Origin: Blastocatellia bacterium
GTDB lineage: Bacteria; Acidobacteriota; Blastocatellia; Chloracidobacteriales; JADJPF01
NCBI GenBank assembly: GCA_016713405.1
Contig: JADJPF010000015.1
Location: 1-64,000 of the forward strand
Direction of reading: 5' to 3'
DNA length: 64,000 nt
The notes under the pieces are model-generated. The model worked only from the letters and a program-made list of their open reading frames with translations. It was not told where the DNA came from and ran no database searches. The first letter of the stretch is position 1, and every line of letters starts with the position of its first letter. This document shows, piece after piece, positions 1 through 35,973 of this stretch. Made by a program: the position numbers and the translations under genes.

Positions 1-436
1 CACCATAAAGTAAATATTTAATTTTGATGTTCTTAGCAACTCGTAAATATGAAATAGCTAGTAGTGATAAAACAGGTAGTGAGCGAAAACTATGAGTTAT
101 GTCAAAAGCAACTTCGTCATTTTGATTAATAGATTCTGTAAGATTAGAAAATATATCCCAAAGCTCATTTTCGCTACTTCCATTAGGAATATTTATGGGT
201 TCAATAGATTGGCCTTCAAATTTTGTTTCTAACAAATTTTTTAACTCAGTCCAATTATTATGTTTTTGAACAGTTTCTGTTAAAACTATTAGAATTTTTT
301 CTGGTTTAAGCCAGCTAATAACAGCTTCAGAAAAAAACTTTGTTTTATATTCTAACTTCTTTGATGCGTCTTTTTCCCAAAAATAATTTGTTTCTTGATA
401 GTTACCTGTACCTACAAGAAATGTAATTAATTTCAT
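1..436 (-). CDS. CRISPR-associated CARF-type protein, DxTHG-motif (TM1812/Csx-like) family; partial, C-terminus lies beyond the left edge
   Basis: Absent from the ORF track because it runs off the window. My reverse-strand translation from the ATG at 436-434 reads MKLITFLVGTGNYQETNYFW...NDEVAFDITHSFRSLPVLSLLAISYL. The N-terminal beta-strand/G-rich start and 'DITHSFRSLP' fit the DxTHG family signature. GGAG lies about 8 nt upstream. The gene sits 38 nt downstream of cmr6 on the same strand. Confidence 0.7.
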   Translation of the reverse strand, partial: MKLITFLVGTGNYQETNYFWEKDASKKLEYKTKFFSEAVISWLKPEKILIVLTETVQKHNNWTELKNLLETKFEGQSIEPINIPNGSSENELWDIFSNLTESINQNDEVAFDITHSFRSLPVLSLLAISYLRVAKNIKIKYLLYG

Positions 437-474
437 AAAATATACTCCAAAAATTTATAAATCATTTCAAATGT

Positions 475-1519
475 TCAACTAGCAGAATAATTTTTAAACT
501 TTTCATACCAATGTTTATCTTTAAACTTTTTCTTATCAACTTCGTCGGCTCTTTTTATTATTACTTCAGCCACTTTTAGTTTTTGACTAGGTTCTGTTAT
601 ATCTTCCCATTTTTTAATATAATTGCCAATTTCACCAGCAAATCTATTATTTGGTAAATTATTAATTGCCATTATCATAGGATCTTCTATTTTAGTTTCT
701 TTTTTTTCTAATACTGCTACTGACTGATTTTCTACAGATATTTTTCTTTCAGGAATTTCTAATTCCATACGACCATATCCGCTAGATGTTTTTGCTCCAA
801 CACCTAATTCTTTTAATGCTTCTTTTAGTATGTCAAAAGTTAAACTTACCCAATCTTCTGGGCCTGATAATGCAATTAAATATTCTCCTGTAGCAGTAAG
901 AAATGAAATAGGCGTTGTGCTGTCCCAATCTGCTGGTTGCAAGATTTTTATCTTGATAATAATCTTGGTGGTGGACTGTGATTACATCAGCATGTAAAGC
1001 TTGTTTATTAATTCCACTATCAGGAACATAAAGCGCGTCATAAAATGTAACAAAACCTGCTGCTTCTTTATTATTTTGATCATCTGCGGAAGTACCAAAG
1101 ACAGTTGCATAATTAGGAGAAGTTTTTTCCCAACCTTGTAAATAATCTCTTGCATAACTAGCTGTTACACCTTTTAATGCACTAGCAGGGATATAAGGCA
1201 CGCCATAAGTATGATGTAGCTTTATGGAAGTTTCTAAAACGCTTTCTGTGCCAAGCCCAACAGCCATACGGCCTTGAACCGTAGCTTTACCAGTTTGCAC
1301 ATCTGAAATTTGCTCTAAAGTTTGCTTCCAGCGTTGATAAAATTTTGTGTAAATTTCTGGTTGAGAAATTGTTCCTACTTCATTGACTAATCTAGTTTTT
1401 GGTTGCTCATTGTTATTGGTTGATTCCTGTTGAGTTGTAAGAAATTTATCTAGCCAAAGACCTGCATGGTTAGCTATTGATTTATCTAAATTAACAAAGA
1501 CATTTCGACAACTATTCAT
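475..1519 (-). pseudogene. cmr6: Cmr6 (type III-B RAMP subunit), split into two ORFs (833-1519, 475-942) by one frameshift; carries a C-terminal extension of about 95 aa
   Basis: The N-terminus 'ANHAGLWLDKFL', 'GVPYIPASALKG' and the G-rich loop 'GVGAKTSSGYGRMEL' are RAMP/Cmr6 hallmarks. The reading frame switches at the T5 run at 945-949 (...HHQDYYQDK | QPADWDSTTPISFL). Confidence 0.8.
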
Positions 1520-1540
1520 AAATATTTCCTTGTAAGTTTT

Positions 1541-1894
1541 TTAATTATCTTTTTCCTCTAACAAGCTTTGTGAAAGGCGTTTGTACCAAGACAAGGCATC
1601 TAAAACATCTTTAGTTAATTTCATATATTCGGCTAAATTTGCTTCACGGCTTTGTTTTAGTAAATCATCTTTGTTGCTGTTAGTGTTCAGTGTTTTAGCT
1701 AAGTCTTCCAGCAAAAAAGCACCATTTTTAGCATTAGCAAAAGCTAAGGCTTGAGCTAGACCAGCAGTATGGATTAACACAGGGAGTTTATCTGCCATTG
1801 TTTTGTATTTGTCTTTTTTTTCTTTAGATTCTGTAGCAACTTGGCTAACGTGTCCATAAGCACTGCTTGCATATTTTTGATTTCGTGTTGGCAT
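1541..1894 (-). CDS. cmr5: Cmr5 (type III-B small subunit)
   Basis: 117 aa, helical. 'LPVLIHTAGLAQALAF' is typical of Cmr5. The gene lies between cmr4 and cmr6. Confidence 0.75.
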   Translation of the reverse strand: MPTRNQKYASSAYGHVSQVATESKEKKDKYKTMADKLPVLIHTAGLAQALAFANAKNGAFLLEDLAKTLNTNSNKDDLLKQSREANLAEYMKLTKDVLDALSWYKRLSQSLLEEKDN

Positions 1895-1912
1895 AGTTTT
1901 TTTCCTCCTAAC

Positions 1913-2799
1913 TTACTGGTTTATTAATTTGACTGAGCATAAGCCATGACCAACGGTTGCTTTACCGCCAAATTGCACAGTTTTGTTAGTTATTGTTGTA
2001 ATAGCTTCAAAGACTTTGTTGGTAGTTATCTCTGCTTTCTTAGTAGGGTTAGCAATGACTAAGCCAGACAAAATTGTTTCTGTTGGCAAGGTTTCTTCAT
2101 ACCAAAGATTTTCTGCTGTTTTAGATTCATCATTTATAACAATTCTTGCAGAAACTTCTGTTGCAGTTTCTAACAAAAGCTTAATAAATCGTCTGAGACA
2201 ATACAAAAACGTGCTTTAAGCATATCTTGCCATTCTGGAGAGTCAGCAAAAATTCTTGGTGCTAGCCAATCAGCCCAATTGCTAGCTTTTACAACTTCAG
2301 TATTATTATTGCTTGGAGTTAAATCTAAATCTTCTAAAAATACCTTGCTATTATTGTTAACACCATGTTTTAGACAACTAGTTGTTATTACTAAACAAGA
2401 GGTTTCTTGTAATGTTTTTGGGGTTTCAGGCAATTTATTTATTCCTGCTACCTTAGCATCACGAACAAATCTTTGTAGAATGTAAGGCGAAGTCACCCAA
2501 GCAAACGTTCCTACAAGGCTACGAATAGGCAGCAACAACAAACGTTGATCAGAAAATTGCACAGATCCAGCATGTTCCATAGTTTGAGATTTTTCTTCAT
2601 TCCCAGTTCCAAAAATACTTTTTTGTTGTTTTTCGTCTGTGCAAAGATCTCGCAAACTACCTTTTACAGATGAACCTGGCAAAAAAGGTATTCCAGTAGC
2701 TTTTTCTCTAGCGATAGGCAAATCAATTACACCAATTCCTTGGCCTGTGCCAGCGTGCAAAGGCGATAGTGCATGGACAAAAGCTAAACGCGCTTCCAT
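1913..2799 (-). pseudogene. cmr4: Cmr4 (type III-B backbone RAMP, target-RNA cleaving subunit), split by one frameshift (ORFs 2170-2799 and 1913-2206)
   Basis: 'FVHALSPLHAGTGQGIGVIDLPIAREKATGIPFLPGSSVKGSLRD' is a classic Cmr4 N-terminus. The C-terminal 'FGGKATVGHGLC' is a G-rich loop. Restoring one T at the run at 2186-2188 gives ...IVSDDFIKLLLETATEV. Confidence 0.85.
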
Positions 2800-2813
2800 A
2801 AAATTTCTCCTTG

Positions 2814-4044
2814 TTAATTTTGTTTAGTAAGAAAATCAAGAAATGCTTTAAGTATATTAGTTTCTTTATTTAATAATGGGGTTCCATTACTTCTTGTTAT
2901 TTTAAGTGCTTCTTGTTCTGTAAGGTTAATTTGGACATTTTTTGGCTGATTCCAATTATTAGCTTTTAAGACCACTTGATTATTAATCGCTTGTTGAGTA
3001 CCTTCTAAAACCGCAGCTAAACCTACATAACCATTGCTACATTTGATTGGCCGCAAAATAAGAGGACTAGCTAATCTATCAGAGTTTTTTAGAGCAAGTG
3101 TTGTATCTTGTGGATCACTAGTTTTATATCTGTTCCCATCCTTAAAATGAAAAATTATTGGTAAACCAAAAACTGCACGAGGAAATTTATTAACAGGATG
3201 TGTTGGATTATGATCTTTATTTTGGTTAACTAAATGTTGTCCTGTTAATCGCCTAATAGCATCTGGTTCAGGCCATCGGCTACGGCCTTGGTTCCCGTTG
3301 CGTTGTTGGCGAAAAATTTTTAGTTTACTGATTAAAATGTTACTGGCTTCTTTACCATTAGCAAAAGTTGTTGGAAGAATCTTAAATTCTAGCTTATGGC
3401 TTAAATGAGGAACATTTTGAGGCCAATTTGTAGAATCAATAACATGTTTTTTTAAGCCTGCACGAATATTATTTTCTACATCTTTTGTACTAATCTCTTT
3501 TGATTTCATAGAGATAGCTCCAAATCCGCGTCTAGTTCTTGCTCCAATGCCGCCAAATGTTTCCCAAGCCCAAAAAGCAGCTTCTACATCAGTTTGTAAA
3601 TCTTTTGGATATTTAATGCTTAATTTAAAAGTAATGTTATCTCTGAGTTTTTGTTTTCTTGTCTTAAAGCAAAAGCTGCATAAGGGTTAACATCCTTTGC
3701 AGATTGAATAAGTTCTAACACCTTGATAGTTGTTTCAACAAAAACTTGTACTTTTGAAGCAGGCTTTTCACCTTTTTTATCTTTGCTAGCTGTTCCCCAA
3801 ATCGCATCTTCTGCTCTTTTCATTTGTTCTAAGTTTGCAATGCCCCACCACGACAAGCACGCCACCAAAAAAGAAGTTGCCCACGAATGCTTGAACCACG
3901 AATTGTTGTTATTGGGTCGGCTTCGCCCGGCTTTACTCCACCACCAAACAAAGGTGTGATTAATTCATATTTACGTTCTTGAGTAATGTTTGATTCCTTA
4001 AGTGGAGGAAATTTTGGGCATTCAACCTTTGGTTTTCTATTCAT
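2814..4044 (-). pseudogene. cmr1: Cmr1 (type III-B RAMP), interrupted by two frameshifts (ORF pieces 3829-4080, 3620-3868, 2814-3509)
   Basis: 'YELITPLFGGG...IRGSSIRGQLLFWWRA' is the Cmr1 N-terminal motif. The untracked frame at 3510-3640 encodes 'WETFGGIGARTRRGFGAI', a G-rich loop. The start is most likely the ATG at 4044, preceded by GGAGGTG and overlapping the cmr3 stop (TAATG). Frameshifts lie at the C4 run 3843-3846 and within about 3625-3665. Confidence 0.75.
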
Positions 4045-5234
4045 TATTTCACCTCCATTATTTCGTTTTTTCCTGACCAAGTGCCTAGCACGGCTAAACC
4101 AAAACTGTCTAAGCGGCTTTGTTCATCGTCGCTAACTGAACTTAACCAGATTTTGTCAACCCAGTTTTCTAACTCTTTTTCATTTGTCGTCTTCTCATCA
4201 AACTTTAAGAAAAACACTGTTCCAGCAGGTGCCAAGCGTCGTGTAGCTTTAGGCTTGTTAGTTTCAAAGTCCCAGCCAGAGATGACTTGAGGACGCTCTA
4301 CACGAATGGCTTTTATTTGTGGAGTTAAAGTTTTGTGAGGTGTTATCAAATATTCAGGTTGACAAATATCCTTAAAACAGCCTGGCGTTAACAGCAACAC
4401 TCTACAAGCTTTTGTGCAAAGAATTTGTTTTTTAATTTGGTCAGGACATTTAGCAAAAGGTATTGAATCGTTGTTTTTATGCCAATTGACTATTCGCCTT
4501 TCACCACCAAGCATGGCAACACCTTCGCGTAAATTAGCCTCAGTTTGCACAGCTAAAGCAAGACGAGTTAAATTAGCAAGCTTTTTATCAGCTTGTTTTT
4601 GATAAGTAAATTCTAAGCCTTGTGTTTGAAATAACGCGCCTTCTCTAGCAGTTTGGCTTTCATTCAAAATGCTTACATGTGTTCGTATATCTAAACTTGG
4701 GCCTTTATGCCCAAGATCAGAGAGATTAACATCTAGCTTATCTTGAGCGTTATTTAACCACTCTTCAAGTTTTTTCCAATACCAAAATCTTGGTGGAGGT
4801 TTATGAGGTTTTCTGTTGTCGCTTTGAGTCATGCCAACCAAAGAAAGGTTTGGAAAATCTGTTTGTAGATCAGTAAAACTATTTTCAGGCATGTTTATTG
4901 GTACAAGTTTTTTTATATTAACTGTAGTTTCATTATTTGAATCATTGTTAAGAATTACTAAATCCATTGGTGCAGGCATTAACCAATTTTGAATGCTTCC
5001 TGTTTCAGCAAGTTCAACTAAAAATGGCCCTTTAATAGCAATTTTTTTAACTTCACTAATTTTTCCTTTTTGGAAATTTCCTTGTGCATCTAGTCCAGCA
5101 CGGGTACGAACTCCGCCAGCAATCGTTGATGGGAAAGGAAAACTTAAGCTAGCGGCTCTCGCACCAGGATCACCAAATGGACGACCATCACGAAAAATTA
5201 TTGGATCACGGGGTTCAAGTATCCAAACAGTCAT
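4044..5234 (-). CDS. cmr3: Cmr3 (type III-B RAMP, Cas10 partner)
   Basis: 'MTVWILEPRDPIIFRDGRPFG...SLSFPFPSTIAGGVRT' and 'RLAPAGTVFF' are typical of Cmr3. The ORF is an intact 396 aa. Confidence 0.85.
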   Translation of the reverse strand: MTVWILEPRDPIIFRDGRPFGDPGARAASLSFPFPSTIAGGVRTRAGLDAQGNFQKGKISEVKKIAIKGPFLVELAETGSIQNWLMPAPMDLVILNNDSNNETTVNIKKLVPINMPENSFTDLQTDFPNLSLVGMTQSDNRKPHKPPPRFWYWKKLEEWLNNAQDKLDVNLSDLGHKGPSLDIRTHVSILNESQTAREGALFQTQGLEFTYQKQADKKLANLTRLALAVQTEANLREGVAMLGGERRIVNWHKNNDSIPFAKCPDQIKKQILCTKACRVLLLTPGCFKDICQPEYLITPHKTLTPQIKAIRVERPQVISGWDFETNKPKATRRLAPAGTVFFLKFDEKTTNEKELENWVDKIWLSSVSDDEQSRLDSFGLAVLGTWSGKNEIMEVK

Positions 5235-5237
5235 ATG

Positions 5238-6743
5238 CTATTTTTCCTTTCCTATTAATTTTTTAACTTCAGCAAAAATGCGAGCAACTACAAGTTCATC
5301 AGCTAGATCTTTGATGGAAACTTTGTCTTCATCAATTCTTTTTTCAATGTTTGTTAAAACATCTTTATCTACTTTTTTGCGTCTAAAAATTCTTTTCGCT
5401 TCTACTTTAATTAAATCTTTTAAGTTAGCTGTATCACCTAAACTTAAAACTAAATCTCTTAATTCATAAGCCACCCCGTCAGGAATTTGACCATTTGCAT
5501 GCAATGTGATCCAATTTTTTAGACGGTCATCTATTTCGCCCCCAACTTTGCACAATCTAAAATTGTATGTATTGGCACAAACGCTAGCACATCATCGCCA
5601 CCAGCATAAACAAGTGAGCCTTTATGCTCTGCTACAATTCTTCGGACATTGCTAGCAAATCGACTTAGAGCGTTAGAAATATTTCTGTGTGCTTCTGGAG
5701 TGTTTTGGCTGTCAATAGCTTCACCCATTCGATCACCATCAGCTAAAAGCAGCCCGTAATAGGGGCTTGGGCGTTTGTCAGCAAGATTGCAACTTTTATA
5801 AAATTCGTTTAGTGCTTTTTTAGCTTGTTTTAGTTTCTCATCTTCATTTTTAGCAAAAAAATCAACTAATCTTTCTTCAAACAAAATATGTCCATCATAA
5901 TTTTCAAAAACAGGATGAGGATCTCGTGGCACATTTCCCAGTTCACTTTCAAGACCAAAATCTTGTTTTAAGGTAAGAATATATTTTCTTACAGCAGTTT
6001 TATGCTCTTCTTTTAGCAATTCTAAAAATGGCAAAGATGCTACGTGAGATGTAGAAAAGAATCTATCTTTCCCTTTCGCCGTTCTCCATGACGTTTTAAT
6101 AAGCCTACTACCCGCAAAGCTTTTCACCTCGACCAATACCATATTTACGCCAAAGTTTTTCATCATCAAATCGGTCATATTGTTTTTCAGGAATAACAGA
6201 TTCACGTTGTCCATCTAGCGACGATTTTGGCACACCTGCTTTTCCCCAAGAAACAGCATTGTAATTTTTAGTAGCTTTTCGTGCGGCCATTAAAGCTTCT
6301 GCTTGCTTGCGAGTTTCAACATATTTTTCTAAGCTCTCTAATTTTGTAGCTACCCAGAAAAACTCTAGCATGTCCGCTATTTGTGCATCTGCGGTTTTAT
6401 TATCAAAATATCCTCGAAGATTTTTCAAGCCATCTTCTTTAATTTCATTAAGTCGAGTTTTTACATTAGTTAGAGCTTGTTTACAAATTTCTTCAGGATT
6501 ATTTTTAACAATTGCTACTATTTTGTTTGCAACATCAAAACTAATATCAGGCTCTAAATCAGATAATTCTGTTGGAGCAGGGAAAATTAAGTTCTCAATG
6601 CCTTCTTTTTCCGCAATGCTATGAGCAGCCGTTTTTGAAAGCTCACTAAGTAGCCAAGAACCAAACCAAAGATCCCGACTTCGCCTAGCAGTGATAATAA
6701 AATCCTGCACTGGGCCGATATGAATAATAATTAAGTATTCCAT
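5238..6743 (-). pseudogene. cas10: Cas10/Cmr2, short form without an HD domain; split into three ORFs by two frameshifts (6108-6743, 5531-6214, 5238-5555)
   Basis: 'MEYLIIIHIGPVQDFIITARRSRDLWFGSWLLS' is a Cmr2-type N-terminus. The palm motifs 'LLLADGDRMG' and 'SLVYAGGDDVLAF' (GGDD) are present. No HD motif precedes them. Frameshifts lie at CCC 6111-6113 and the C5 run 5539-5543. The total is only about 500 codons. Confidence 0.85.
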
Positions 6744-6950
6744 AGCACAACCTGTAAATGAAAGTTGATTAAATTGTTATTATGAAAAAGTAATATGCTA
6801 TTTTTGCTAGACGCAAAATTTACATAACTTTTTACTAATAATCAACTACTTAATCTTAAAAAGATAAAATTACTATTTATAGCTTTTTAACTAAAGCATT
6901 ATTTGTATTTTTATTGGGATTCTAAAACAAAATTGGCAGATTAAAAGAGC

Positions 6951-6964
6951 CAGCAAGCTTGCTG
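6951..6964. promoter_or_regulatory. Perfect 14-bp palindrome CAGCAAGCTTGCTG about 210 bp upstream of cas10; possible operator
   Basis: Read directly from the sequence. It lies in the 466-bp AT-rich region between the divergent cas10 and 7210 genes. Confidence 0.2.
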
Positions 6965-7209
6965 AGTGGAAAATTTTTAGGGTTTATGTTGTCTATTTAG
7001 CTACTCTCATTTTCTGACTGCTGCTAAATTCCCAAACTCTAGTTAATCCTTGGGAAATGTAAGTAATATAGATTCGTGAGAGTTTTTTAGAGTTTTTTGA
7101 CATTTTTTTCATAGAACTTTTTTGCAGGTTAAGCAAAAACACCCAAATTATGCTAGGAATATATCTTGCATGTTAAATGGGTTAGCATGATTATGGAGGT
7201 TAAACTGTT

Positions 7210-7974
7210 ATGAAAAAGGTAATAAGCTTGTTGATCTCTAGAATAGCTATTATTAGTTCTCTAATAATAGCTACTACGCTAGGTGTAACAGCACAGTGGA
7301 ACAACCCGTATTGGGGAACAAGTTGGAATAATCCTACATCAAGCCTACTGCAAACTATGACTATGAATAAAGTTTTTGCCGATAGTATGAGAAAACCGTT
7401 TGAGCAAAGAGGCAAAGCTTTAGATCAAAGGTCGATACCAAAGCAAAATAAACTTACTCCATACCAGCAAAAATCTGTAACTTTCTCGCCTGTTGCTAAT
7501 ATGATTATGCCAAAACAGCTAGCTGAAACGATTGGAGCAACACCCAAGGATCGCAAAGAACTTCAAAAAGCATTTACCGAATTTTTGCAGGTTTTCGACC
7601 AGGAAGCCGCTTTAGACAAAGAAGAAAATAATGTTGCTCGTGCAGTCACTTTTTTTATTGTTTGCAACTACATTGTTGCTACAGGCTTGGAGTTTGAGGA
7701 AGAACAGATCAATTTTATGGAGAGAGATATAAATATTTACCTAGCAGAAAACGAGTATTTTTGCGCCTTTGATAACCACAGGAAGCAAGAACTTTATGAA
7801 AGCTTGGTCATTCTTGGCACCCTTGCTGCCGCAGGCTATCATGACGGAGAGGAAAACGGACGAAAAGAGCAAATGGAGAGATTCCGCTCTTTAGCACGTA
7901 ATGGCTTGGAAACCTTGCTAGGTGTACCTGTTGAGAGGTTGAAATTGACAAAAGTAGGGTTGGTTATTAAATAG
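7210..7974 (+). CDS. Hypothetical secreted protein
   Basis: Has an N-terminal hydrophobic signal-like segment (LLISRIAIISSLIIATTLGVTA). GGAGG lies upstream. I recognise no family. Confidence 0.5.
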   Translation: MKKVISLLISRIAIISSLIIATTLGVTAQWNNPYWGTSWNNPTSSLLQTMTMNKVFADSMRKPFEQRGKALDQRSIPKQNKLTPYQQKSVTFSPVANMIMPKQLAETIGATPKDRKELQKAFTEFLQVFDQEAALDKEENNVARAVTFFIVCNYIVATGLEFEEEQINFMERDINIYLAENEYFCAFDNHRKQELYESLVILGTLAAAGYHDGEENGRKEQMERFRSLARNGLETLLGVPVERLKLTKVGLVIK

Positions 7975-8243
7975 TTTTACTTCTGCTCGAATAATCCATT
8001 TCTATCAGATTTGCCTTTTTAATGTCTTCTTGTTTTTTTCCTTAACTCTAACAGAAATAGAATAAAGGGAAACAAAAGGATATTACGATACAACTCAATA
8101 AGCAAATCATACAAAATCAATAGTTTATCTATTAAAACATCTCAATTCTTGAGAGTTTTCTAATGATTAAGTAGTTTTATCTAAAATCAAAAATGCAGCC
8201 GTGCTACAAACAACAGGACTAAATTTTGACCATGCTGGCTATA

Positions 8244-9092
8244 TTATTGCTTGACCAGTTCTACACGACGGTTTTTTGCGCGACCTTCTTCGGTATCGTT
8301 GCTTGCCATAGGAGCTAAGGGGCCGACACCGCGGCTAATAAGGCGACTTGCAGAAATACCGTGTTGTGTAATGAGTGCTTGCACTACTGCTTCAGCACGG
8401 GCATGGGAAAGCCTCATATTTAGATCCAGCGAAGCAATATTATCTGTATGACCTACTACATAGACCTTCAATGCTAAGTCTGCTTTCAGCAATTTGGCAA
8501 TTTCGGTTACGGCGTTGTCTGATTCAGGTTTCAACTCAGATTTTCCTGTGTCAAAGTAAATTCCTGGAACCTCAACGTGTCCACTAGTTCTAAGGCTAGT
8601 TTTAAAGATTTCTGCACTTGAAGTTACTTCCTGGGTCATTGCTTCCTTTTCGATAATGGTTAGCATATAGCCTTTTCCCCAAGCAGTGTCAAGCAATGCC
8701 CAGACTTCCTTACCATTCTTAGCTACTTTCAGAACTGTATAGCGTTTATCTTCAAAAAGTGTTGTTCCACCGATTTGAGCGATAGCTTGCTGATGATTAC
8801 GTATGATCTGCAAGGGTGAAGGGGCTACTGTAGCATCAGTCTTATATCTAATTTCAAAGCGTTTTCCTTCTACAGCAGTTTCGGTTGTCTTTCCAGTTTT
8901 AAAAGCAAATCGGTCAAAAGCGACTGTTTTGCAATATTCTATATGCATGTCCTGCATGCGAGTAAAAAGCGGATGGTCTTGGCAGCCAGCTTTATCTGGA
9001 CTCTGAGACAATACAATACTACAAAACAAAAAAATCCAAATGATGAGAACATGGATGGAAACCAATAGAGATTTTAATTTAGTACATTGCAT
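8244..9092 (-). CDS. OmpA-family (OmpA/MotB C-terminal domain) protein
   Basis: The C-terminus 'VVGHTDNIASLDLNMRLSHARAEAVVQALI...RAKNRRVELV' is the OmpA-like peptidoglycan-binding signature. An N-terminal signal/TM segment is present. Confidence 0.8.
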   Translation of the reverse strand: MQCTKLKSLLVSIHVLIIWIFLFCSIVLSQSPDKAGCQDHPLFTRMQDMHIEYCKTVAFDRFAFKTGKTTETAVEGKRFEIRYKTDATVAPSPLQIIRNHQQAIAQIGGTTLFEDKRYTVLKVAKNGKEVWALLDTAWGKGYMLTIIEKEAMTQEVTSSAEIFKTSLRTSGHVEVPGIYFDTGKSELKPESDNAVTEIAKLLKADLALKVYVVGHTDNIASLDLNMRLSHARAEAVVQALITQHGISASRLISRGVGPLAPMASNDTEEGRAKNRRVELVKQ

Positions 9093-9377
9093 ATGATGCC
9101 TCCAGTCAAAAGTTGCTCATTGTTTTGCTTAATACATCAATTACTTACAATAACTACAAAAACAAGACTTCCAAAATCGTCCCACAACTTTGCTGATGTG
9201 CTTCTATACTTAAAGCAATGAGTATGCCTAATACTAAGCTTATAAAAATGGGTGGTTATATTTTGTATATGGGTTATATTTCCCAAAATTGAAGAATAAT
9301 TGGGGGAATTAACTGTAGTGATTGCAATGTCTATTGACCATATTTAATACTCCAAAGTATTTTTGTTTGAAGTTTAT

Positions 9378-10322
9378 TTATTTTCTTGCAGAGATATAAA
9401 TTTTTACAGGTGGTTGCACTTTGTACACTTGAGCAAAGTTGTTTTGGTTGATTGCTAAGGCTAAATGGCCGCGAGAATCAATGTAAAGCAGAGGTTGGTT
9501 AACTGCCACATCACTAAAGGTTTTTACAAAAGGTAAGGAAATATTTTGCTCCCCTATTTTTATATTTATTTTTTCACTAATTTTATAGCCTAGTTTATAA
9601 AAAACTTCTGCATCAACATTGGTGACTAAATTTCCATAGGGGCCATCTAGCCCGATGACCTCAGCACTTAAGCCTTTTTCATCAATTTGTGCAGCACTGA
9701 TATTAAGTTTTACTAGCTCATTAATTGGTAATATGGGCCCTACTTTAGCCCAATTTTCACCTTTTGCTATGTGTGCTGCTACAGGTGAAAAAATATCTCG
9801 GCCATGAAAAGTTGATGACAAGGCTTGACCAATCATTAATTTAGTGTTGGTAATTTCCCTTACAGCTTCTAATCCGTCTTGTTGCTCAACTAGCGTTAGC
9901 AAACCATTGTTAGGCAAAACAAAATATTGACCGCGCTTTGATTTAGCTACAATAGCTTTTCTTTCACTCCCAACACCAGGATCTATAACAACTGCAAACA
10001 CTGTTGCAGGCGGGTAATAAGCAGTTGTTCCTGCCAAAAATCGCGCTCCATCTAAAATTGAGTAAGGCGTAACTTGATGGCTAATATCAATAATTTTAAG
10101 TTTTGGTTCGATTGAAAGCATTACACCTTTACAAATTGCTACAGAATCGTCAATTACTCCAAAATCAGACATAAACAGTATTGTAGGGCTGTTAGTTTGC
10201 TGAGTTTTCGGAGTTCGCTTTGAAGTTTGATAACTGCTAGCAAAAGTCATTAAGCTAGGCGACACCAACAAATTAAAAAGAATAAAAAAAGTAGCAAAAA
10301 TAGATAAGATTAATTTTTTCAT
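9378..10322 (-). CDS. SAM hydroxide adenosyltransferase family protein (DUF62, chlorinase/fluorinase-like) with an N-terminal signal/anchor
   Basis: 'ILFMSDFGVIDDSVAICKGVM', 'VVIDPGVGSERKAI', 'LPNNGLL' and 'STFHGRDIFSPVAAH' match the DUF62 family. The start is probably MKKLILS at 10322, because the longer ORF to 10406 overlaps the upstream MFS gene. Confidence 0.75.
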   Translation of the reverse strand: MKKLILSIFATFFILFNLLVSPSLMTFASSYQTSKRTPKTQQTNSPTILFMSDFGVIDDSVAICKGVMLSIEPKLKIIDISHQVTPYSILDGARFLAGTTAYYPPATVFAVVIDPGVGSERKAIVAKSKRGQYFVLPNNGLLTLVEQQDGLEAVREITNTKLMIGQALSSTFHGRDIFSPVAAHIAKGENWAKVGPILPINELVKLNISAAQIDEKGLSAEVIGLDGPYGNLVTNVDAEVFYKLGYKISEKINIKIGEQNISLPFVKTFSDVAVNQPLLYIDSRGHLALAINQNNFAQVYKVQPPVKIYISARK

Positions 10323-10336
10323 ATAGATAAAACACT

Positions 10337-11524
10337 CTAAGCTTTTTGTTTGATTTTTAGCATCATTATTGCAGAAAGAAAACCAAGAAATAAACAACTT
10401 ATCCAAAGTGTTGATGCTCCAAAGTTTTCTAAAACGTTTGTACCAAAAACTGGCCCTAAAGTAGTTCCAAAACCAAAAGACATTGCAAAAATGCCCATGT
10501 ATTCACCACGTCTACTAACTGGTGAAACTTCAGCAACATAAGCAGAACTTGCAGGAAATAAAATCATTTCTCCAAAAGTCCAAATAACAACGCTAATTGC
10601 TGCTGTGATTGGATCGCTAATCCAAATCATTGCACCAAACCCTAGTGCAATTAAAATACAACCTAATGCTAGAGAATATTTGTAAGCCCAAGTGTTGGTG
10701 ACGGAATTAATAGGAATTTCTAGAAATGTGATAATTATTGTATTTAATGTAAATAATAAACCATAAATGGCTTCTGACATTTTTAGATCTCTAACTAAAT
10801 AGAGTGCTGCTGTACTTTCTAGCTGAAAAAATACTAATATAGTTGGAATTAGTGCTAGTAGGAAGTAAATAAAAGCTCTATTTTTAACTGGGGGCAATGG
10901 ATTATCAATGTTTTCTAGCTTTGCATGACTTTCGCTTTTTACGATAAAAGCTTTTTTTACATGCTTAAAGAAAAGTATAAGCACAATTCCTGCTACTAGT
11001 GAAGTAACACCATCTACAACAAATAGAAGAGGATAAGAAAAATAAACTAAAAAACCTCCAACCGCTGGGCCAACACTCATTCCTAGATTTATTGCTAGAC
11101 GATTTAAGGCAAAAGCTTGTTTTAACTGCGAGCTTGGGACTATTTCGCTAATTATTGCCATACAAGCTGGCCTAAAAGCTTCACTAATTATTGACCAAAT
11201 AAAGGTGAGGGCAACAATAGCTGGAAAACTATTGATAAAAGGAAATAAAAACAATGTTAAACCAGATAAAACTAGGGAGGTTTTCATCACTTTACTTGCA
11301 CCAATGTTGTCGGCAATACGCCCAGCTATTGGAGCCGTCAGTATTCCACCAATTCCATGCGCTATTAAAGCAAGACTAGCTTTTTGTGCTGGAATATTTA
11401 ATGCTTTGGTTAAATAGATCATTAAAAAAGGCAGTACCATAGTACCAGCACGATTTATTAACACGGTTGCAGACAGTAACCATAACTCTTTAGGTAAACC
11501 TTTAAGATCTCGCCAAGGATTCAT
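10337..11524 (-). CDS. MFS transporter
   Basis: 395 aa with about 12 hydrophobic segments. An MFS-like 'GRIADNIGASK' loop follows TM2. Confidence 0.75.
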   Translation of the reverse strand: MNPWRDLKGLPKELWLLSATVLINRAGTMVLPFLMIYLTKALNIPAQKASLALIAHGIGGILTAPIAGRIADNIGASKVMKTSLVLSGLTLFLFPFINSFPAIVALTFIWSIISEAFRPACMAIISEIVPSSQLKQAFALNRLAINLGMSVGPAVGGFLVYFSYPLLFVVDGVTSLVAGIVLILFFKHVKKAFIVKSESHAKLENIDNPLPPVKNRAFIYFLLALIPTILVFFQLESTAALYLVRDLKMSEAIYGLLFTLNTIIITFLEIPINSVTNTWAYKYSLALGCILIALGFGAMIWISDPITAAISVVIWTFGEMILFPASSAYVAEVSPVSRRGEYMGIFAMSFGFGTTLGPVFGTNVLENFGASTLWISCLFLGFLSAIMMLKIKQKA

Positions 11525-11730
11525 AAAAATTCTTCTACCCAGACAACAGCAATTTGAGCTACAAATTGGGGATTCACGGGATTTTTAGATTAAAAATTAA
11601 ACTTCTATTTGCTATTTGCAAGAATATAAACTAAAAACAAATACAAAAAGGCTTGCTAAATTGTTCTCTTTGTTGGCAGATTTGGCTTTAATGGCTATAA
11701 AAACTAATTGTAAAAGAGGAGATTATACAG

Positions 11731-12534
11731 ATGTTTACTGTTGGTGTGGTGCAAATAAATTCTACAGATAAAGTTTTAGACAACTTAAATCGTTGCGAGA
11801 AGCTTATTTGTCAAGCTGCTGAACGAGGGGCAACAATGGTAGCTTTGCCAGAAAATTTTGCTTATTTACGCTCAGAATCAGAAGCTGTTGAATATCGACA
11901 AACTCTTACAAGTGATTTAGTTACATGGTGTAAAGAGCTTGCTCAAAGATTAAAAATTTTTCTCCTAGCAGGAAGCTTTCCAGAAAAAACGGAAACGTCT
12001 GATAAAATATATAATACAAGCTTAGTTTTTGACACGGAAGGTAATATTATTGCTCATTACCGAAAAATACATCTTTTTGATGTTACATTGCCTGATGGTA
12101 CAGTGTTGATGGAATCGCAGTTTGTTCAAGCAGGCGGTGAAATGGTTACTACAACGGTATTAGGTCATAAAATAGGTTTAACTATTTGTTATGATTTGCG
12201 ATTTCCTGAACTTTATCGACGGCTAACTTTAGCTGGAGCAAAAGCTATTTTTGTCCCTTCGGCTTTTACATTGCAAACAGGGCGCGATCATTGGGAAGTG
12301 TTACTGCGAGCGCGAGCAATAGAAAATCAAGTTTATATAATTGCTCCAGCGCAATTTGGACAGCATACCCCAAAACGTGCTAGCTATGGTCGAGCTTTAA
12401 TTGTTGATCCTTGGGGAACTGTAATTGCAAAAGCATCTGATAAAGAAACTGTAATTCTTGCTGATTTAGATTTTGATTACCTTGATGCAATTCGTCAAAG
12501 AATGCCTTGTAGCAAACATATTAAGTTAATTTAA
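11731..12534 (+). CDS. Carbon-nitrogen hydrolase (nitrilase superfamily, Nit-like)
   Basis: 'LPENFAY', 'YRKIHLFD' and 'ICYDLRFPELYR' provide the E-K-C catalytic-triad context. Confidence 0.85.
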   Translation: MFTVGVVQINSTDKVLDNLNRCEKLICQAAERGATMVALPENFAYLRSESEAVEYRQTLTSDLVTWCKELAQRLKIFLLAGSFPEKTETSDKIYNTSLVFDTEGNIIAHYRKIHLFDVTLPDGTVLMESQFVQAGGEMVTTTVLGHKIGLTICYDLRFPELYRRLTLAGAKAIFVPSAFTLQTGRDHWEVLLRARAIENQVYIIAPAQFGQHTPKRASYGRALIVDPWGTVIAKASDKETVILADLDFDYLDAIRQRMPCSKHIKLI

Positions 12535-12546
12535 CTAGGAGATTTA

Positions 12547-13488
12547 ATGACTAACTTACGCGGTAACAAAACTTTGGAGCTAGTTTTATCTCGTGACAGC
12601 ACGATTTCAATTCATGAACAATTAGTAACACAACTAAGCTTGCAAATAGTTAATGGTCTGCTTAAACCAGGTGATAAACTTGCCTCAGTTCGTACCCTAG
12701 CACGTCGCTTAGGTATTCATCATAATACAGTTAGCACTGCTTATGGAGAATTAGCAGACCGTAATTTAGTAGAAATTAAACATGGAAGTGGAGTTTATGT
12801 AAGTAAACCTAGTTTAATTACTTCAGAAGAGACAGATTTAGATAGCATTATTCGTAGCTTTTTAGATGTTGCTCGTAAACAAGGCTATTCTTTGCAATCA
12901 ATTCGTGAGTCAGTAATAAAATGGTTAGATAAACAGCCGCCAGACCATATTTTAATTATTGAGCCAGCAAAAGATTTACAAAAAATATTAATTTATGAGC
13001 TAAAGCAGCATTTTGATTGTGAAATTTTAGCAGCAACTCCAACAGAAGTAGCTACAAAAACAGCAATTTTAACAGGTGCGCTTTCAGTTGCTACTATTTA
13101 TCATTCAGTAGAAATTAAGAAGTTATTACCTAAAGATATTTTACTAATAAATATAAATTTACAAACAGGTCAACAAGAAGCTGAAAAGCTTAAAAAGTTG
13201 CCTGTAGGGGCAATGGTTGGACTAATTTCTATTGGGGAAACAATGCTAGAGTTTGCCCGAATTGTGATAGGCTCTTTACGAGGGGAAGATTTAATGGTTA
13301 GAACAGAAATTTTTGCTGATACTAAAAAATGGCAATCGCTAGTTAATGTTGCTGATTTAGTTATTACAGATAGTTTTTGTTTTGAAAAAGTGGCTCAAGT
13401 TGCAGGGAAAAAAGTCTTACAACTAAACTTAATTTCCCCTCAAATAGTTCGTTATTTGCGTAATGCCTTAAAAAATTCTTTTAGCTAA
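12547..13488 (+). CDS. GntR-family transcriptional regulator with a C-terminal ligand-binding-like domain
   Basis: The N-terminal winged-HTH reads 'LKPGDKLASVRTLARRLGIHHNTVSTAYGELADRNLVEIKHGSGVYV'. Confidence 0.8.
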   Translation: MTNLRGNKTLELVLSRDSTISIHEQLVTQLSLQIVNGLLKPGDKLASVRTLARRLGIHHNTVSTAYGELADRNLVEIKHGSGVYVSKPSLITSEETDLDSIIRSFLDVARKQGYSLQSIRESVIKWLDKQPPDHILIIEPAKDLQKILIYELKQHFDCEILAATPTEVATKTAILTGALSVATIYHSVEIKKLLPKDILLININLQTGQQEAEKLKKLPVGAMVGLISIGETMLEFARIVIGSLRGEDLMVRTEIFADTKKWQSLVNVADLVITDSFCFEKVAQVAGKKVLQLNLISPQIVRYLRNALKNSFS

Positions 13489-13491
13489 TAA

Positions 13492-14007
13492 TTAGGCAAT
13501 AATAACTGTGATAGTTGAAAATTTTTCATGAAATCTTAAATCTAGCCAAAAACCTAAAGTGTATTTTTGCTCTTGGTCAGCACCGTTTAAGGCTAAAACT
13601 ATTTCTTCACCACTTTCTATAACTTGAGCCGTGACATTAAATTTTGCTAAATAGGGATTAATTTCTTGTAAAAGGAAATTTTTAATTTCTTCTACAACAT
13701 AACTTTCAATTACTTTATCTTCTGTATTTTCAGCTAAATGAAAATGTAAGTCTTCCTCATCATCTCCAATATGATTATGAAAATCTAAAGTTGTACAAAA
13801 GCGACGTGACATAATAAGTCGAGCAATTTCTTCATGACAGGAGCCACAACCGCCGCCAGCTTTGCACTTACGGCGGACTTGAGCTACAGTATTTGCATCT
13901 ATTTCTAAAATTGTGTCTAAAACTTTTTGTCGGCTAACTTTTAAGCATAGACAAATTAACTCATCTGGAGAGCCTGTATAAATTCTACGGTCGCCATGTA
14001 AGTGCAT
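13492..14007 (-). CDS. BFD-like [2Fe-2S]-binding domain protein with a NifU-like C-terminal region
   Basis: 'CLCLKVS...KCKAGGGCGSCHEEI' matches the Cys pattern of BFD-like 2Fe-2S domains. Confidence 0.6.
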   Translation of the reverse strand: MHLHGDRRIYTGSPDELICLCLKVSRQKVLDTILEIDANTVAQVRRKCKAGGGCGSCHEEIARLIMSRRFCTTLDFHNHIGDDEEDLHFHLAENTEDKVIESYVVEEIKNFLLQEINPYLAKFNVTAQVIESGEEIVLALNGADQEQKYTLGFWLDLRFHEKFSTITVIIA

Positions 14008-14039
14008 AAATTTTCCTTTTCTGATTTTATTAATAAAAA

Positions 14040-14606
14040 TTATTCAGCCGCTTCATAAGCTTGTTTAATCCAGTTAATAAGCTCTGAGTCTACTTCATCA
14101 ACAGTTGTTAACTTTACCTTAAAATGACACATACTATTAGCAGGCATTTCAGCTAGTCTATCAGTAGCTTGAAGACTTTTTAGGTTTATCCCCACTTCAA
14201 CACGACTATTAGTAGCAGGTGTAATCATTGCAAATTGTTTTTTACGACGTAGACTAACATAGCCTTTTTTTGGTGCAATTTCAAATGTGCCAAATTCATT
14301 AATTGCTTCCATTAGCTTTTCATGGATTGGTCGTAAACTAGCCTTAGTTCCTGCGTAAATTTCATTAAGTATGTCAGTTGATGAATTATCTTTAGTTTCA
14401 TTTTCAGCAGGCTTAAGAAATAAATGTGTTAGAGTGTTAGCATCTCCATGCCCTAAAGTTAAGTCTTTTTTAAGCATGTCTCGGATTTCACCATGTTTTG
14501 CAAGGCCACTTTGTTTAATTATTGACATTAAATCATCTAGAGTTTTACCTGTTTTTGTTTGAATATTTTTTAGCTGAGTTTCAATAGCTTTGTTAACATC
14601 ACTCAT
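14040..14606 (-). CDS. DUF4287/DUF5655-type protein
   Basis: The N-terminus 'IETQLKNIQTKTGKTLDDLMSIIKQSGLAKHGEIRDMLKKDLTLGHGDANTL' matches my memory of DUF4287. Confidence 0.55.
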   Translation of the reverse strand: MSDVNKAIETQLKNIQTKTGKTLDDLMSIIKQSGLAKHGEIRDMLKKDLTLGHGDANTLTHLFLKPAENETKDNSSTDILNEIYAGTKASLRPIHEKLMEAINEFGTFEIAPKKGYVSLRRKKQFAMITPATNSRVEVGINLKSLQATDRLAEMPANSMCHFKVKLTTVDEVDSELINWIKQAYEAAE

Positions 14607-14753
14607 AGATTTTTCCTTTCAATAGCTTGTTTTTATCATTTAAAAGGCTTTGCTAGCTTTGTTATGAGTACTAGATTTAAGCGTGTTATATTAGCAAGAT
14701 CAAGTTTTCTTTATCTATCAAATTTTCCAAAAAGCAGTTTAGGATAAATTTTT

Positions 14754-16118
14754 ATGTTTAGCCCAGAAACCATTATTACCGAGCAAATAGCAAATAATTA
14801 TTGGCCTACTTTATCACCAGAAATTTACAAAAAACGTCGGGAAGAATTTTTGTCAAAACTAGGTAATGGAGTAGCAATTTTTCCTAGCGCACCAACTACT
14901 ATTCGCACTAATGACACAGATTATCGTTATAGACAAAATAGCGATTTATATTATTTAACAGGATTTACTGAACCAGAAACAGTATGTTTACTTGCACCAA
15001 ACCACCTAGAACATAAGTTTGTCTTATTTGTTCGTCCTCGAAATGAGGAAAAGGAGATTTGGGAAGGGCGACGAGTGGGCCCGGAAGGAGCTAAAGAATT
15101 ACTTGGCGCAGATGCTACTTATGAAATTGAAAAGTTGGATGAAGAACTACCTAAATACTTAGAAAAAGTAGATTTTATTTACTATTCATTAGGCAATGAG
15201 CAGCGTTTTGACCAAAGAATTATTAATTTAATTAAATATTTTCGCTCAATGCGTCGGCGCAATGGTGTAGGGCCTTATTCAATAATTGACCCAACGGAAA
15301 TTTTACAAGAAATGCGGCTTATTAAAACACCTGAAGAACTAGAACTGATGAGACGTTCGGCTACAATTGCTGCACAAGCTCATTTAGCTGCAATGAAAGC
15401 AGTTAAGGTTGGGATGTATGAGTTTGAAATTGAAGCAATTATTGAGCATTATTTTCGTCGAAGTGGTGCTAATGCACCAGCTTATAACTCAATTGTTGGA
15501 GCAGGTGCTAATGCTACAATTTTGCATTATGTAGAAAATAACTGCCAGATAAAGGATAACGATCTTTTACTAGTAGATGCTGGTGCAGAATATGAGCATT
15601 ATTGTTCAGATATTACCCGAACTTATCCGGCTAATGGACGATTTACTAAGGAACAAAAAGAAATCTATGAAATTGTTTTGGCGGCTCAACTTGCTGCAAT
15701 TGAAAAAGTAAAGCCAGGTGCAGCCTTTGATGATGTTCATCAAGCAGCTTTAGATATAATTGTAGACGGACTTTTTAATTTAGGGCTGCTTTCTGGTGAA
15801 CGGGAAAAAGTTATAGAAGAAAAACAATATCAAAAGTTTTTTATGCACCGTACTAGCCATTGGTTAGGGATAGATACACATGATGTAGGTAAATATAAAC
15901 AATCCGATGAGTCGCGTATATTAGAGCCAGGAATGATACTAACCGTTGAGCCAGGAATTTATATTAGACCAATGGATGATGTACCAACAAAAGATCATAA
16001 TATTGGAATACGTATTGAAGATGATGTATTAGTTACTGAGCAAGGGTCAGAAATATTAACTGCTTTTGTACCAAAGCAAATCAATGAATTAGAAGCAATT
16101 ATTGGACGGGGGAATTAG
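14754..16118 (+). CDS. pepP: Xaa-Pro aminopeptidase (aminopeptidase P, M24B)
   Basis: 'YRQNSDLYYLTGF', 'ILHYVENN', 'LLLVDAGAEYEHYCSDITRTYP', 'HWLGIDTHD' and 'TVEPGIY...IRIEDDVLV' are M24B metal-ligand motifs. Confidence 0.9.
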   Translation: MFSPETIITEQIANNYWPTLSPEIYKKRREEFLSKLGNGVAIFPSAPTTIRTNDTDYRYRQNSDLYYLTGFTEPETVCLLAPNHLEHKFVLFVRPRNEEKEIWEGRRVGPEGAKELLGADATYEIEKLDEELPKYLEKVDFIYYSLGNEQRFDQRIINLIKYFRSMRRRNGVGPYSIIDPTEILQEMRLIKTPEELELMRRSATIAAQAHLAAMKAVKVGMYEFEIEAIIEHYFRRSGANAPAYNSIVGAGANATILHYVENNCQIKDNDLLLVDAGAEYEHYCSDITRTYPANGRFTKEQKEIYEIVLAAQLAAIEKVKPGAAFDDVHQAALDIIVDGLFNLGLLSGEREKVIEEKQYQKFFMHRTSHWLGIDTHDVGKYKQSDESRILEPGMILTVEPGIYIRPMDDVPTKDHNIGIRIEDDVLVTEQGSEILTAFVPKQINELEAIIGRGN

Positions 16119-17781: not shown

Positions 17782-18479
17782 TTACTTTTTAAGCTGAAAA
17801 GTCTCGTCATAATCGGCTAAGGTTGGAAAAACAAGTTTAGGTGTTTCGTTAACACTTAATAACCTTTGTTTATATTCTTCTAAGTAAGCTTTGCGGCGTT
17901 CAGTGTTAACACGGCTAACACCATAAGCTATAAATGGTGGTAAGACATCAAAGCCAACAAAATAAAGGATTCCATGATTAATAGGGAAAAGAATTTGGTG
18001 AATACTTCCATTTAATCCTAATGGAGTATACATTGACTCACCGCCTCCAGTAGTAAGCACAAGCATAGCTTTTTTGCCATGAAAAACACCCTGGTCATAC
18101 CATTTACCCCCGCCATAAATGCGACCCATAGCAAAAACACGATCTACCCAACCTTTTAATATTGCTGGAAGACCAAACCACCAAAGTGGGAATTGAAAAA
18201 CTAGTACATCACACCAATCTAGTTTAGCCATTTCAGCTTTTACATCAGAGGCAAAGCTATCTGTTTCTGAAGCAAAGATTTCTTCAACTTGTTGTTTATA
18301 GTAATGTGGCTCTTTGACATTAAGGAAATTGTGACGACCAGAAACAGGATTAAATTGTCTACCATAAAGATCAGATACTATTATTTCATGTCCTGAGCAG
18401 GCAAAACTTCTTTGGCTAAATTAAGCATCGCACCATTAAAGCTTTTTGGTTCTGGGTGTGCATAGACAACAAAATACTT
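17782..18479 (-). pseudogene. NAD(P)H dehydrogenase (quinone)/flavodoxin-like fold protein; start codon lost and internal frameshift
   Basis: The upstream frame reads 'KYFVVYAHPEPKSFNGAMLNLAKEVL' and is preceded directly by TAG, with no ATG despite GGAG upstream. The frame then changes near 18385-18410 to 'GHEIIVSDLYGRQFNP...DWCDVLVFQFPLWWFGLPAILKGW'. Confidence 0.7.
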
Positions 18480-31600: not shown

Positions 31601-32172
31601 TTTACCAGCATGTTTATTTAGGAAATGCTTATCTTTTTGAAATTAGTTTTGATATAGATCAGGCATCAAACCTTTTACAACATGCTTTAGCTCTTGCTTT
31701 AGAAATAGGGGACAAAGCTACTACACTTGTGATTAAACGGGGAATAGCCAAAATAGCTGCTTTAGAAGGAGATTATCATTTAGCTACCAATCAATTAAAA
31801 CAATTTGTGGCAGTGCTAAAAAGTTTTGGTGAATTGCCAGAACAAATGTTAACCCTAGAAGTACTAGCTCAAATTCAAGAATCAGCCGGAGAAAATGCAG
31901 TTGCTTATGATACTTATAATAATGCCCTAGAAATAGCTCAAAATATTGGAGCTATACATCAGCAATGGAGTATTTTACTTGGTAAAGCTCGCTGTTTGTT
32001 TAAGTTAGAAAAATTAGAGGAAGCTTTAGAGACTTTAAAATTATCAGAAAAAATAGTGAAAATTTTGTTAGAAGGTTTTACTAATGACGAAGATTCAAAA
32101 TGCTTAACTAAAGCAACTCAAAGTGTGTATCAGCTTTTAAGGCAGATTCAACTTCAAAGCTCTACAAATTAA
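28627..32172 (+). CDS. Ser/Thr protein kinase fused to a P-loop (AAA/STAND-like) NTPase and TPR repeats
   Basis: Kinase motifs 'GGVGEVYLAKD', 'HRDLKLENFIL', 'DFGLAK' and 'MSPEQ'. Walker A 'NSGAGKTFLL'. A long helical repeat region of about 450 aa at the C-terminus. Confidence 0.85.
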   Translation: MGQANNATLAADTLIADKYRVIELIGYGGVGEVYLAKDEKIQRLAAIKLLFKELNNDIDHKSRFLREARTISSLNHPNIITVYEIGFFDDQLFIATEYVEGQTLRQIVEKKGSFKLKDFFSIAIQSIQGLMIAHQNGIVHRDLKLENFILRSDGLVKILDFGLAKVSDNCSNTVLRSGAGFKTDAGVILGTPNYMSPEQAKGEDVDIRSDIFSLGSVFYELLTGKVAFDGNSLVQTLMNLAVSQPPPMPATVPSKLKAVIMRMLQKSPAARYQTIEQVLTELASLYDELNLANNLTNYVTTANKIPTGVYKKVGTAALTPTTPQYDQFVGRIEELQLIQTQILQMGQQSAHPIIILSNSGAGKTFLLSKLQEIISQQDLLVTLVNLFDQDNFTQPYQWILPMLANLLGFRFEDSLMDKSGALAQRVNARIKARYGLTLPAEIWSQNLETKHESEKWPVFEVINQILQALVKDKKLLILFDNLHLANELSLELIGYTIRNNSNKKIFLVATTNLSEINRSGSFLEDWFFRQSKYVKFEIVDLKSFTLEETKIYFEALFRQIEISERELNYIYQITNGNPYYLSEVVRLLVQEGKIHLVGSWWHCEALENIALPNTIGTALLYKIEKCDEELKELITKVSILGNSFSFDLLTEFLEFEPEKLEPLLVEAEKEHFIYEQRSSKIDEYCFQSSALQQVLYDSLSKRQRRKLHSQAALAIKKIFQNNLRQVLSTLTFHHYAATEWQETFYFGQQAIIQSFEQSAWGEVVKLGQLVEEAATILQENQEINLADLALLVDIKNKHASALVNLGKLELALTIAQSALQLAEKLQDNNLLAQSYGNLSHFGWYQGRFKDVIIWAEKGLSIAQIAQNKFWQQQLNLQTGRAKLRVAHYKEALFNLTEACRLAEQLQEEKLLAHAQVFQGLCLQLLGERQKGFELVEKGMALANKLGDSLFLCRAYSMLSVMYFYEYNTDSLKEVHKKGVVLSRQIGWRLGEVYQHVYLGNAYLFEISFDIDQASNLLQHALALALEIGDKATTLVIKRGIAKIAALEGDYHLATNQLKQFVAVLKSFGELPEQMLTLEVLAQIQESAGENAVAYDTYNNALEIAQNIGAIHQQWSILLGKARCLFKLEKLEEALETLKLSEKIVKILLEGFTNDEDSKCLTKATQSVYQLLRQIQLQSSTN

Positions 32173-35847: not shown

Positions 35848-35973
35848 AAGCAAATCTCCAAACACATCAAATTACTAAAAATTTTATTGTTTTCTTATTA
35901 TGCTTATAAATGATTTTCTTTGCAATTGTAGATATAAATTCATTTCTTTTAACAATTACCTAGCACTTTTCAT

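Follow-up and report, generated by a model that had tools for sequence, protein, structure and literature searches.

Frame-broken genes in a canonical III-B (Cmr) module with HD-less Cas10 and Csx1-type partner on a Blastocatellia contig

Introduction

Subtype III-B (Cmr) loci that lack an HD domain in Cas10, cas6, adaptation genes and CRISPR arrays, and rely on CRISPR RNAs (crRNAs) provided in trans have long been described, and such modules with Csx1 partners are well known. Array-less type III modules can draw on the crRNAs of other CRISPR loci; III-B loci found together with type I systems are an example. A fusion of Csx1 with Crn2 is known as well (Protein Data Bank (PDB) 8y75/8y6z; PMC11317161).

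Here we analyze a stretch of 64,000 nucleotides (nt) from a Blastocatellia bacterium (contig JADJPF010000015.1 of assembly GCA_016713405.1, positions 1 to 64,000), in the following called the window, which starts with a Cmr module on its minus strand. We assign the locus to the canonical effector modules of subtype III-B, with an HD-less Cas10 and a partner of the Csx1 (CARF-HEPN) type; it is not a new kind of system. Judged from its sequence as written, the window copy cannot yield a Cmr complex or a cyclase. A previous sequence-only reading had presented the locus as a stand-alone module whose immunity would rely on signalling by cyclic oligoadenylate (cOA); most of its structural observations agree with our results, but what it implied about function and novelty does not.

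Identity and setting of the module

On the minus strand, between positions 6743 and 475, searches with NCBIfam models identified successive genes for Cas10/Cmr2, Cmr3, Cmr1, Cmr4, Cmr5 and Cmr6. A gene of the TIGR02221/DxTHG family follows 3′ of cmr6, starts at position 436 and runs off the contig at position 1 (Table 1). All five subunits besides Cas10 were found with their own family models (Cmr3, TIGR01888; Cmr1, TIGR01894; Cmr4, TIGR02580; Cmr5, TIGR01881; Cmr6, TIGR01898), and Cas10/Cmr2 was matched by TIGR02577 on two fragments (7.8e-21 and 5.9e-31). Neighboring genes are separated by 0–38 nt. The gene order, the tight packing and the subtype III-B are thus as read before, but not the description of the genes as intact units, since only cmr3 and cmr5 are whole and cas10, cmr1, cmr4 and cmr6 are fragmented. 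The window takes up one end of a contig of 85,471 bp. In GenBank the locus carries the tags IPK14_17090–17140 (proteins MBK7995031–39), and the intact genes are already annotated there as III-B.

The N-terminus of Cas10 (MEYLIIIHIGPVQDFI) aligns from position 2 of the Cmr2 model, which leaves no room for an HD domain. The sequence-only reading had named an HD domain encoded upstream in another frame as a point to check; the region from 6744 to 7209 contains no minus-strand open reading frame (ORF) and no HD domain, upstream or in another frame. Intact Cas10 orthologues of 580–585 amino acids (aa) consist of Cmr2_N and Palm2/mCpol domains only and have no HD match in Pfam. The nearest solved HD-less Cmr2, a 612-aa “Type III-B Cas10/Cmr2” (PDB 9arw), aligned over its full length (query 3–537 to chain 21–554, E=7e-32). 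On this evidence Cas10 is HD-less. In the intact form its Palm domains carry both the ADGD and the GGDD motif, and Palm2 corresponds to residues 325–456 of an intact orthologue (132 residues).

No CRISPR array was detected in the window by k-mer scan, TRF or Rfam. The same k-mer scan found none in any of the related contigs described below and did detect the arrays of two control loci (L012 and L013). Among another 30 ORFs of the window, Pfam searches revealed no cas6, cas1 or cas2, and a source of crRNA (array plus Cas6) was found neither in the window nor in the 10-kb flanks of five relatives. The absence of an array and of cas6 from the window was therefore read correctly.

Relatives of the module were collected through Cmr3 homologues of 85–93% identity from other metagenomes and metagenome-assembled genomes (MAGs), yielding eight loci (L001, L007, L008, L011, L014, L015, L019 and L020). 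In these related Blastocatellia/Acidobacteria contigs the module occupies the site known from the window and has the same MFS, SAM_HAT, GntR and peptidase genes as neighbors, in some cases along with ompA and DUF6683. Every Cmr gene is intact in all of these relatives but L007 (L001, L008, L011, L015, L019 and L020 among them); the intact proteins measure 580–585 aa for Cas10, 393–398 for Cmr3, 411–469 for Cmr1, 294–299 for Cmr4, 113–132 for Cmr5 and 348–353 for Cmr6. Five contigs (L007, L008, L011, L019 and L020) reach past the module and show housekeeping genes on both sides where covered, without an array or cas6 within 10 kb. Where the contigs continue, a convergent 800-aa AAA+ protease of the LonB/LonC type comes next, then an ABC transporter. 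The shared layout confirms the stand-alone architecture proposed earlier and shows that the lineage has conserved it. Judged from the gene order of L019 and L020, the region to the left of the window most likely holds the Lon and ABC transporter genes. A CRISPR role for the Lon-like protease was set aside; it is convergent to the module and stands beside the ABC transporter in every relative, and we consider it a housekeeping gene.

The window matches L001 and L019 at 98.7–99.2% identity over more than 8 kb of flank (6744–14982). The Cmr genes (470–6743) form a patchwork, in which blocks 100% identical to L001, L011 or L015 alternate with blocks of 75–90% identity. At the edge of the module there is a two-gene presence/absence polymorphism: an ompA-like gene (8244–9092) and a DUF6683 gene (7210–7974) lie between SAM_HAT and cas10 in the window, L001, L015 and L019 and are missing in L007–L010, where SAM_HAT is found about 250 nt 5′ of cas10. 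A SAM-AMP link of SAM_HAT, directly 5′ of cas10 in L007–L010, was also considered and dropped, as ompA and DUF6683 intervene in the window, L001 and L019 and the effector is the CARF protein.

Partner protein

GenBank lists exactly the 145 residues of the window as “CRISPR-associated DxTHG motif protein, partial”, from which it follows that the contig ends at position 1. The effector domain had been placed beyond the window; it is indeed not in the window, but it is beyond the contig itself, so that a leftward extension is impossible. The fragment contains a CARF domain with the DxTHG motif DITHSFRSLP. Its orthologue in L019 has 428 aa, is 73% identical over all 145 residues and has the C-terminus ...DLRNDLMHCG with the HEPN R-x4-H motif RNDLMH, which also occurs in the homologues of L012 and L013 (39% identity). 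When the window fragment and three homologues were combined into a profile, it matched the Csx1 part of Csx1-Crn2 (8y75) over positions 3–402 (E=2e-20) and, weakly, Csx1 from Sulfolobus islandicus (6qzq, “DxTHG family”). The CARF identity of the partner is borne out by this profile match and by TIGR02221 and TIGR02549 (Table 1). We infer that the partner is a Csx1-type CARF-HEPN ribonuclease, with a HEPN part like that of the orthologue.

The slot between cmr6 and Lon is not occupied by the same gene throughout the lineage. In the window, L019 (16768–18054) and L020 it holds the DxTHG Csx1-type protein of 428 aa; in L007, L008 (12809–13927) and L011 (7078–8145) it holds an unrelated Cas_APE2256/TIGR02619 CARF protein of 355–372 aa with a weak ring-nuclease match.

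By analogy to III-B/Csx1 systems already studied, Cmr1–6 of an intact module would assemble on crRNA supplied in trans, and Cmr4, in which the VIDLPI aspartate is retained, would cut the bound complementary target RNA. Target binding would activate the Palm domains of Cas10 (ADGD, GGDD) to produce cOA, which would bind the CARF domain of Csx1 and switch on its non-specific HEPN ribonuclease. Lacking an HD domain, the system would have no Cas10 DNase arm. None of these steps is possible for the window copy unless its breaks are errors.

Disrupted genes in the window copy

The breaks were located by tblastn with intact orthologues and by a multiple DNA alignment with L001, L007, L008 and L011. 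We detected seven frame-disrupting events (Table 1), all specific to the window in comparison with these four. The closest alleles, L014 and L015, span five of the seven sites and carry none of the five events.

In the ORF list, cas10 is divided into three (6743–6108, 6214–5531 and 5555–5238), cmr1 likewise into three, and cmr4 and cmr6 into two pieces each. The family models continue across these divisions, with positions 2–194 and 195–282 of TIGR02580 (Cmr4) and positions 4–132 and 134–195 of TIGR01898 (Cmr6) on separate ORFs. A 585-aa Cas10 orthologue aligned by tblastn with residues 1–208, 204–395 and 474–585 in different frames and residues 396–473 absent; the frame segments of cas10 are 6743–6111, about 6110–6078, 6077–5549 and 5540–5238. 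The absent residues correspond to a 226-nt deletion that removes orthologue codons 396–473, including the SVGVAIVHH strand, and thereby 61 of the 132 Palm2 residues, from 14 codons past GGDD. A translocated copy was ruled out for the window, as the deleted peptide was looked for elsewhere in it and not found. Neither the deletion junction nor the unique cas10 allele at the 3′ end was matched in the JGI metagenomes, the protein collection returned only the window's own record, and the 3′ end of cas10 (5543–5238) had no other match in the databases searched.

Compared with the intact orthologues, cas10, cmr1, cmr4 and cmr6 each need one to three frame corrections, and the four subunits are untranslatable as written. 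The functionality implied by the sequence-only reading does not hold for this record. It had further concluded from the retained GGDD motif that immunity would act through cOA. The motif is present, but the conclusion fails for the window copy, because Cas10 is frame-broken and lacks 75 residues right behind GGDD.

Table 1 Features of the III-B module, its frame breaks and other frame breaks of the window.
Feature	Position	Strand	Basis or detail
Csx1-type DxTHG/TIGR02221 CARF gene, 5′ 145 codons	1..436	-	TIGR02221 6.9e-27, TIGR02549 1.8e-10
cmr6, disrupted	475..1519	-	TIGR01898 over two ORFs
cmr6 break, +1 nt, GCACC to GCAACC	~938	-	surrounding block 100% identical to L011 apart from this change
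cmr5, intact, 117 aa	1541..1894	-	TIGR01881
cmr4, Cas7-type backbone subunit, VIDLPI Asp motif kept, disrupted	1913..2799	-	TIGR02580 over two ORFs
cmr4 break, -1 nt, T5 to T4	~2179	-	alignment
cmr1, disrupted	2814..4044	-	three frames by tblastn; DNA alignment
cmr1 break, -1 nt, A-run	~3649	-	alignment
cmr1 break, -1 nt, T3 to T2	~3841	-	alignment
cmr3, intact, 396 aa	4044..5234	-	TIGR01888; 100% identity to MBK7995035.1, 93% to intact orthologues
cas10/cmr2, HD-less, disrupted	5238..6743	-	TIGR02577 on fragments; tblastn with intact 585-aa orthologue
cas10 break, -226 nt, out of frame	junction 5543-5549, within 5530..5557	-	alignment
GGDD cyclase motif of cas10, codons GGT GGC GAT GAT	5591..5602	-	
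cas10 break, -1 nt, A4 to A3 in GGCGAAAAGGG	~6077, within 6067..6084	-	alignment
cas10 break, +2 nt (GT)	~6111, within 6103..6118	-	GCGG-GT-AGTAGGC vs GCGGAGTAGGC in L001, L011, L008, L007
Intergenic region 5′ of cas10	6744..7209	.	no HD-encoding ORF, no repeats
Flavodoxin_2/NQO-like reductase, G3 to G2 near 18393	about 18381-18397	-	homopolymer-type break
Aldo-keto reductase, start lost at GTG+A8 (A7 expected)	21085-21099	-	homopolymer-type break
nuoL, 1-nt deficit, A5 for A6	55894-57974, break 56854-56858	+	two ORFs; AAC ATT AAA AAG TCC, expected AAA AAA GTC CTG GCC TAC; restored reading NIKKVLAYSTVSQ
TatT/TPR-like gene, shift in G/A run near 61748	61742-61756	-	ORFs 61727-62059 and 61380-61790

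Cause of the disruptions

Our leading reading, put at about an even chance, is that the window copy is genuinely defective. Gene identities, breaks, intact orthologues and the missing array nearby are direct observations; the presence of the breaks in the cell is inferred. The out-of-frame loss of 226 nt would have removed the Palm2 core and relaxed selection on the remaining genes of the module; of the six breaks of 1–2 nt in cas10, cmr1, cmr4 and cmr6, some would be real and some sequencing noise. Small frame-breaking indels number 6 in the 6.3 kb of the module and 4–5 in the other 57 kb of the window, a density about 12-fold higher in the module, and the binomial probability that at least 6 of 11 evenly spread events fall within this 9.8% of the window is about 2e-4. 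The adjacent 8.2 kb of flank contain no window-specific indel compared with L001 and L019. Moreover, neither the 226-nt deletion nor the insertion of GT is of the homopolymer type, and both are atypical of consensus errors. In L007, a short-read assembly with contigs from three samples, an in-frame change from CGA to TGA was found at cas10 codon 204 (L007 8256–10004) in a frame of 582 codons that is otherwise intact, which indicates that the module is sometimes inactivated in nature. Several observations weigh against a genuine defect. Shifts of 1 nt in homopolymers also occur in nuoL, the flavodoxin-like reductase, the aldo-keto reductase and the TatT-like gene of the window, so the record is error-prone and probably a long-read MAG. 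All breaks in the Cmr genes are indels, and the corrected frames are open and conserved and contain no nonsense codon. For neutral decay, 7 unique indels are many next to 21 unique substitutions, and the ratio of nonsynonymous to synonymous changes among the window-unique substitutions (15/6, from few sites) shows no excess over the intact L001 (43/13) and L011 (57/23). Of the six small indels, five are located in strain-variable blocks, in the third of the module that is unlike any sampled allele; the unique -1 at 3841 has a unique A-to-G substitution 3 nt away, which resembles a cluster of consensus errors; and the whole module is within 6.7 kb of the contig end.

These observations fit the alternative that the organism itself has an intact, functional module, as the sequence-only reading pictured it, and that all breaks are consensus errors of a low-coverage long-read metagenome assembly, an explanation that we regard as a serious one, at somewhat under an even chance. 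The clustering would then result from a strain-variable locus at the contig tip, with mixed reads and poor short-read polishing. Consistent with this, the housekeeping genes carry the same type of shift as the module, the corrected frames are 80–100% identical to intact orthologues, the +1 at 938 lies within about 450 nt that are otherwise 99–100% identical to L011, and the locus combines segments like those of L001, L011 and L015 into a mosaic, with some segments of only about 75 nt, on a contig that breaks in a variable accessory gene. The IPK14_*/MBK79* tags presumably belong to an activated-sludge MAG set, of which the MAG of the window would then be part. The MAGs of that set derive from Nanopore reads assembled with CANU, with polishing by Racon and Medaka and then with Illumina reads, and many low-coverage Blastocatellia MAGs are among them (PMC8012365). 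Pure consensus error would, however, have to account for a 226-nt deletion and a 2-nt non-homopolymer insertion, and the 12-fold density next to 8.2 kb free of indels would need a special local cause. Everything other than real inactivation or pure artefact is, taken together, improbable. Least credible is the idea that the split frames are deliberate, through programmed ribosomal frameshifting or naturally split subunits: homopolymer runs at some of the shift sites are all that speaks for it, against six independent sites in four genes that are absent from every relative and an out-of-frame deletion of the conserved core of a catalytic domain. Programmed frameshifting was rejected because the shift sites are missing from all relatives. 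We also judge it very unlikely that the locus represents a functionally distinct, signalling-only, orphan III-B variant defined by an HD-less Cas10 without array and cas6. Seven related contigs share the HD-less Cas10 and the absence of an array, but each subunit scores as an ordinary member of its Cmr family and Cas10 aligns end to end with the solved HD-less Cmr2 of 612 aa.

Meaning of the two outcomes

Real breaks would document that one strain lost its III-B module in a population that otherwise keeps it. Were they artefacts, the locus would be a routine III-B module with Csx1, and the record would be unfit for statistics on pseudogenes or defence repertoires without checks at the level of reads. 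Either outcome leaves the knowledge of type III CRISPR mechanisms unchanged. The analysis is above all a caution, as motifs read from the raw sequence made a frame-broken locus resemble a working signalling-only type III system.

The mildly interesting side is found at the population level, in the swapping of the effector slot, the mosaic Cmr alleles and the repeated knock-outs of cas10. We tentatively suggest, as a possibility that falls well short of an even chance, that one Blastocatellia lineage carries an array-less III-B module at a fixed site between housekeeping genes, with a swapped CARF slot and mosaic Cmr genes, in which cas10 was knocked out independently at least two times (by the nonsense change in L007 and by the 226-nt deletion in the window). 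If true, the lineage would show a type III module caught in nature while it is being diversified and then lost in a single population.

Other genes in the window

The scan of the other 30 ORFs revealed no additional cas or defence genes, and Rfam gave no matches. The remaining content is of the housekeeping kind and comprises the nuo operon, RF-1, UDP-glucose dehydrogenases, kinases and transporters.

A bacterial homologue of the major vault protein (778 aa; 21326–23662, plus strand) was identified by the Pfam domain MVP_shoulder (3e-32) and a Vault_3 repeat. It is followed on its 3′ side by a gene for a 902-aa protein with VIT and VWA domains (24842–27550, plus strand), a domain pair as in the vault-associated vPARP/ITIH. 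These two genes may constitute a bacterial vault-like gene pair. Further downstream lies a gene for a Ser/Thr kinase of 1181 aa with AAA_16 and TPR domains (STAND-like; 28627–32172, plus strand), and near it on the minus strand are genes for a second Ser/Thr kinase (33381–34463) and for a 395-aa protein with a staphylococcal-nuclease domain (34678–35865).

Comparison with known systems

The novelty implied by the sequence-only reading is not upheld: an HD-less, array-less III-B module with Csx1 is a well-known arrangement, and all components are ordinary members of their families. The locus resembles the array-less type III modules that use crRNAs in trans in that no array, cas6, cas1 or cas2 is present in the 64-kb window or within 10 kb in five relatives. 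In contrast to the Csx1-Crn2 protein (8y75/8y6z), the partner has no Crn2 fusion, with the window copy known from its first 145 codons only. The window record differs from III-B complexes of the 9arw type in its four frame-broken subunits, its truncated Palm2 and the low identity of its Cas10 to the solved protein. It shares with them the complete Cmr1–6 set in operon order and a Cas10 that starts with Cmr2_N, has a Palm2 domain with GGDD and has no HD domain.

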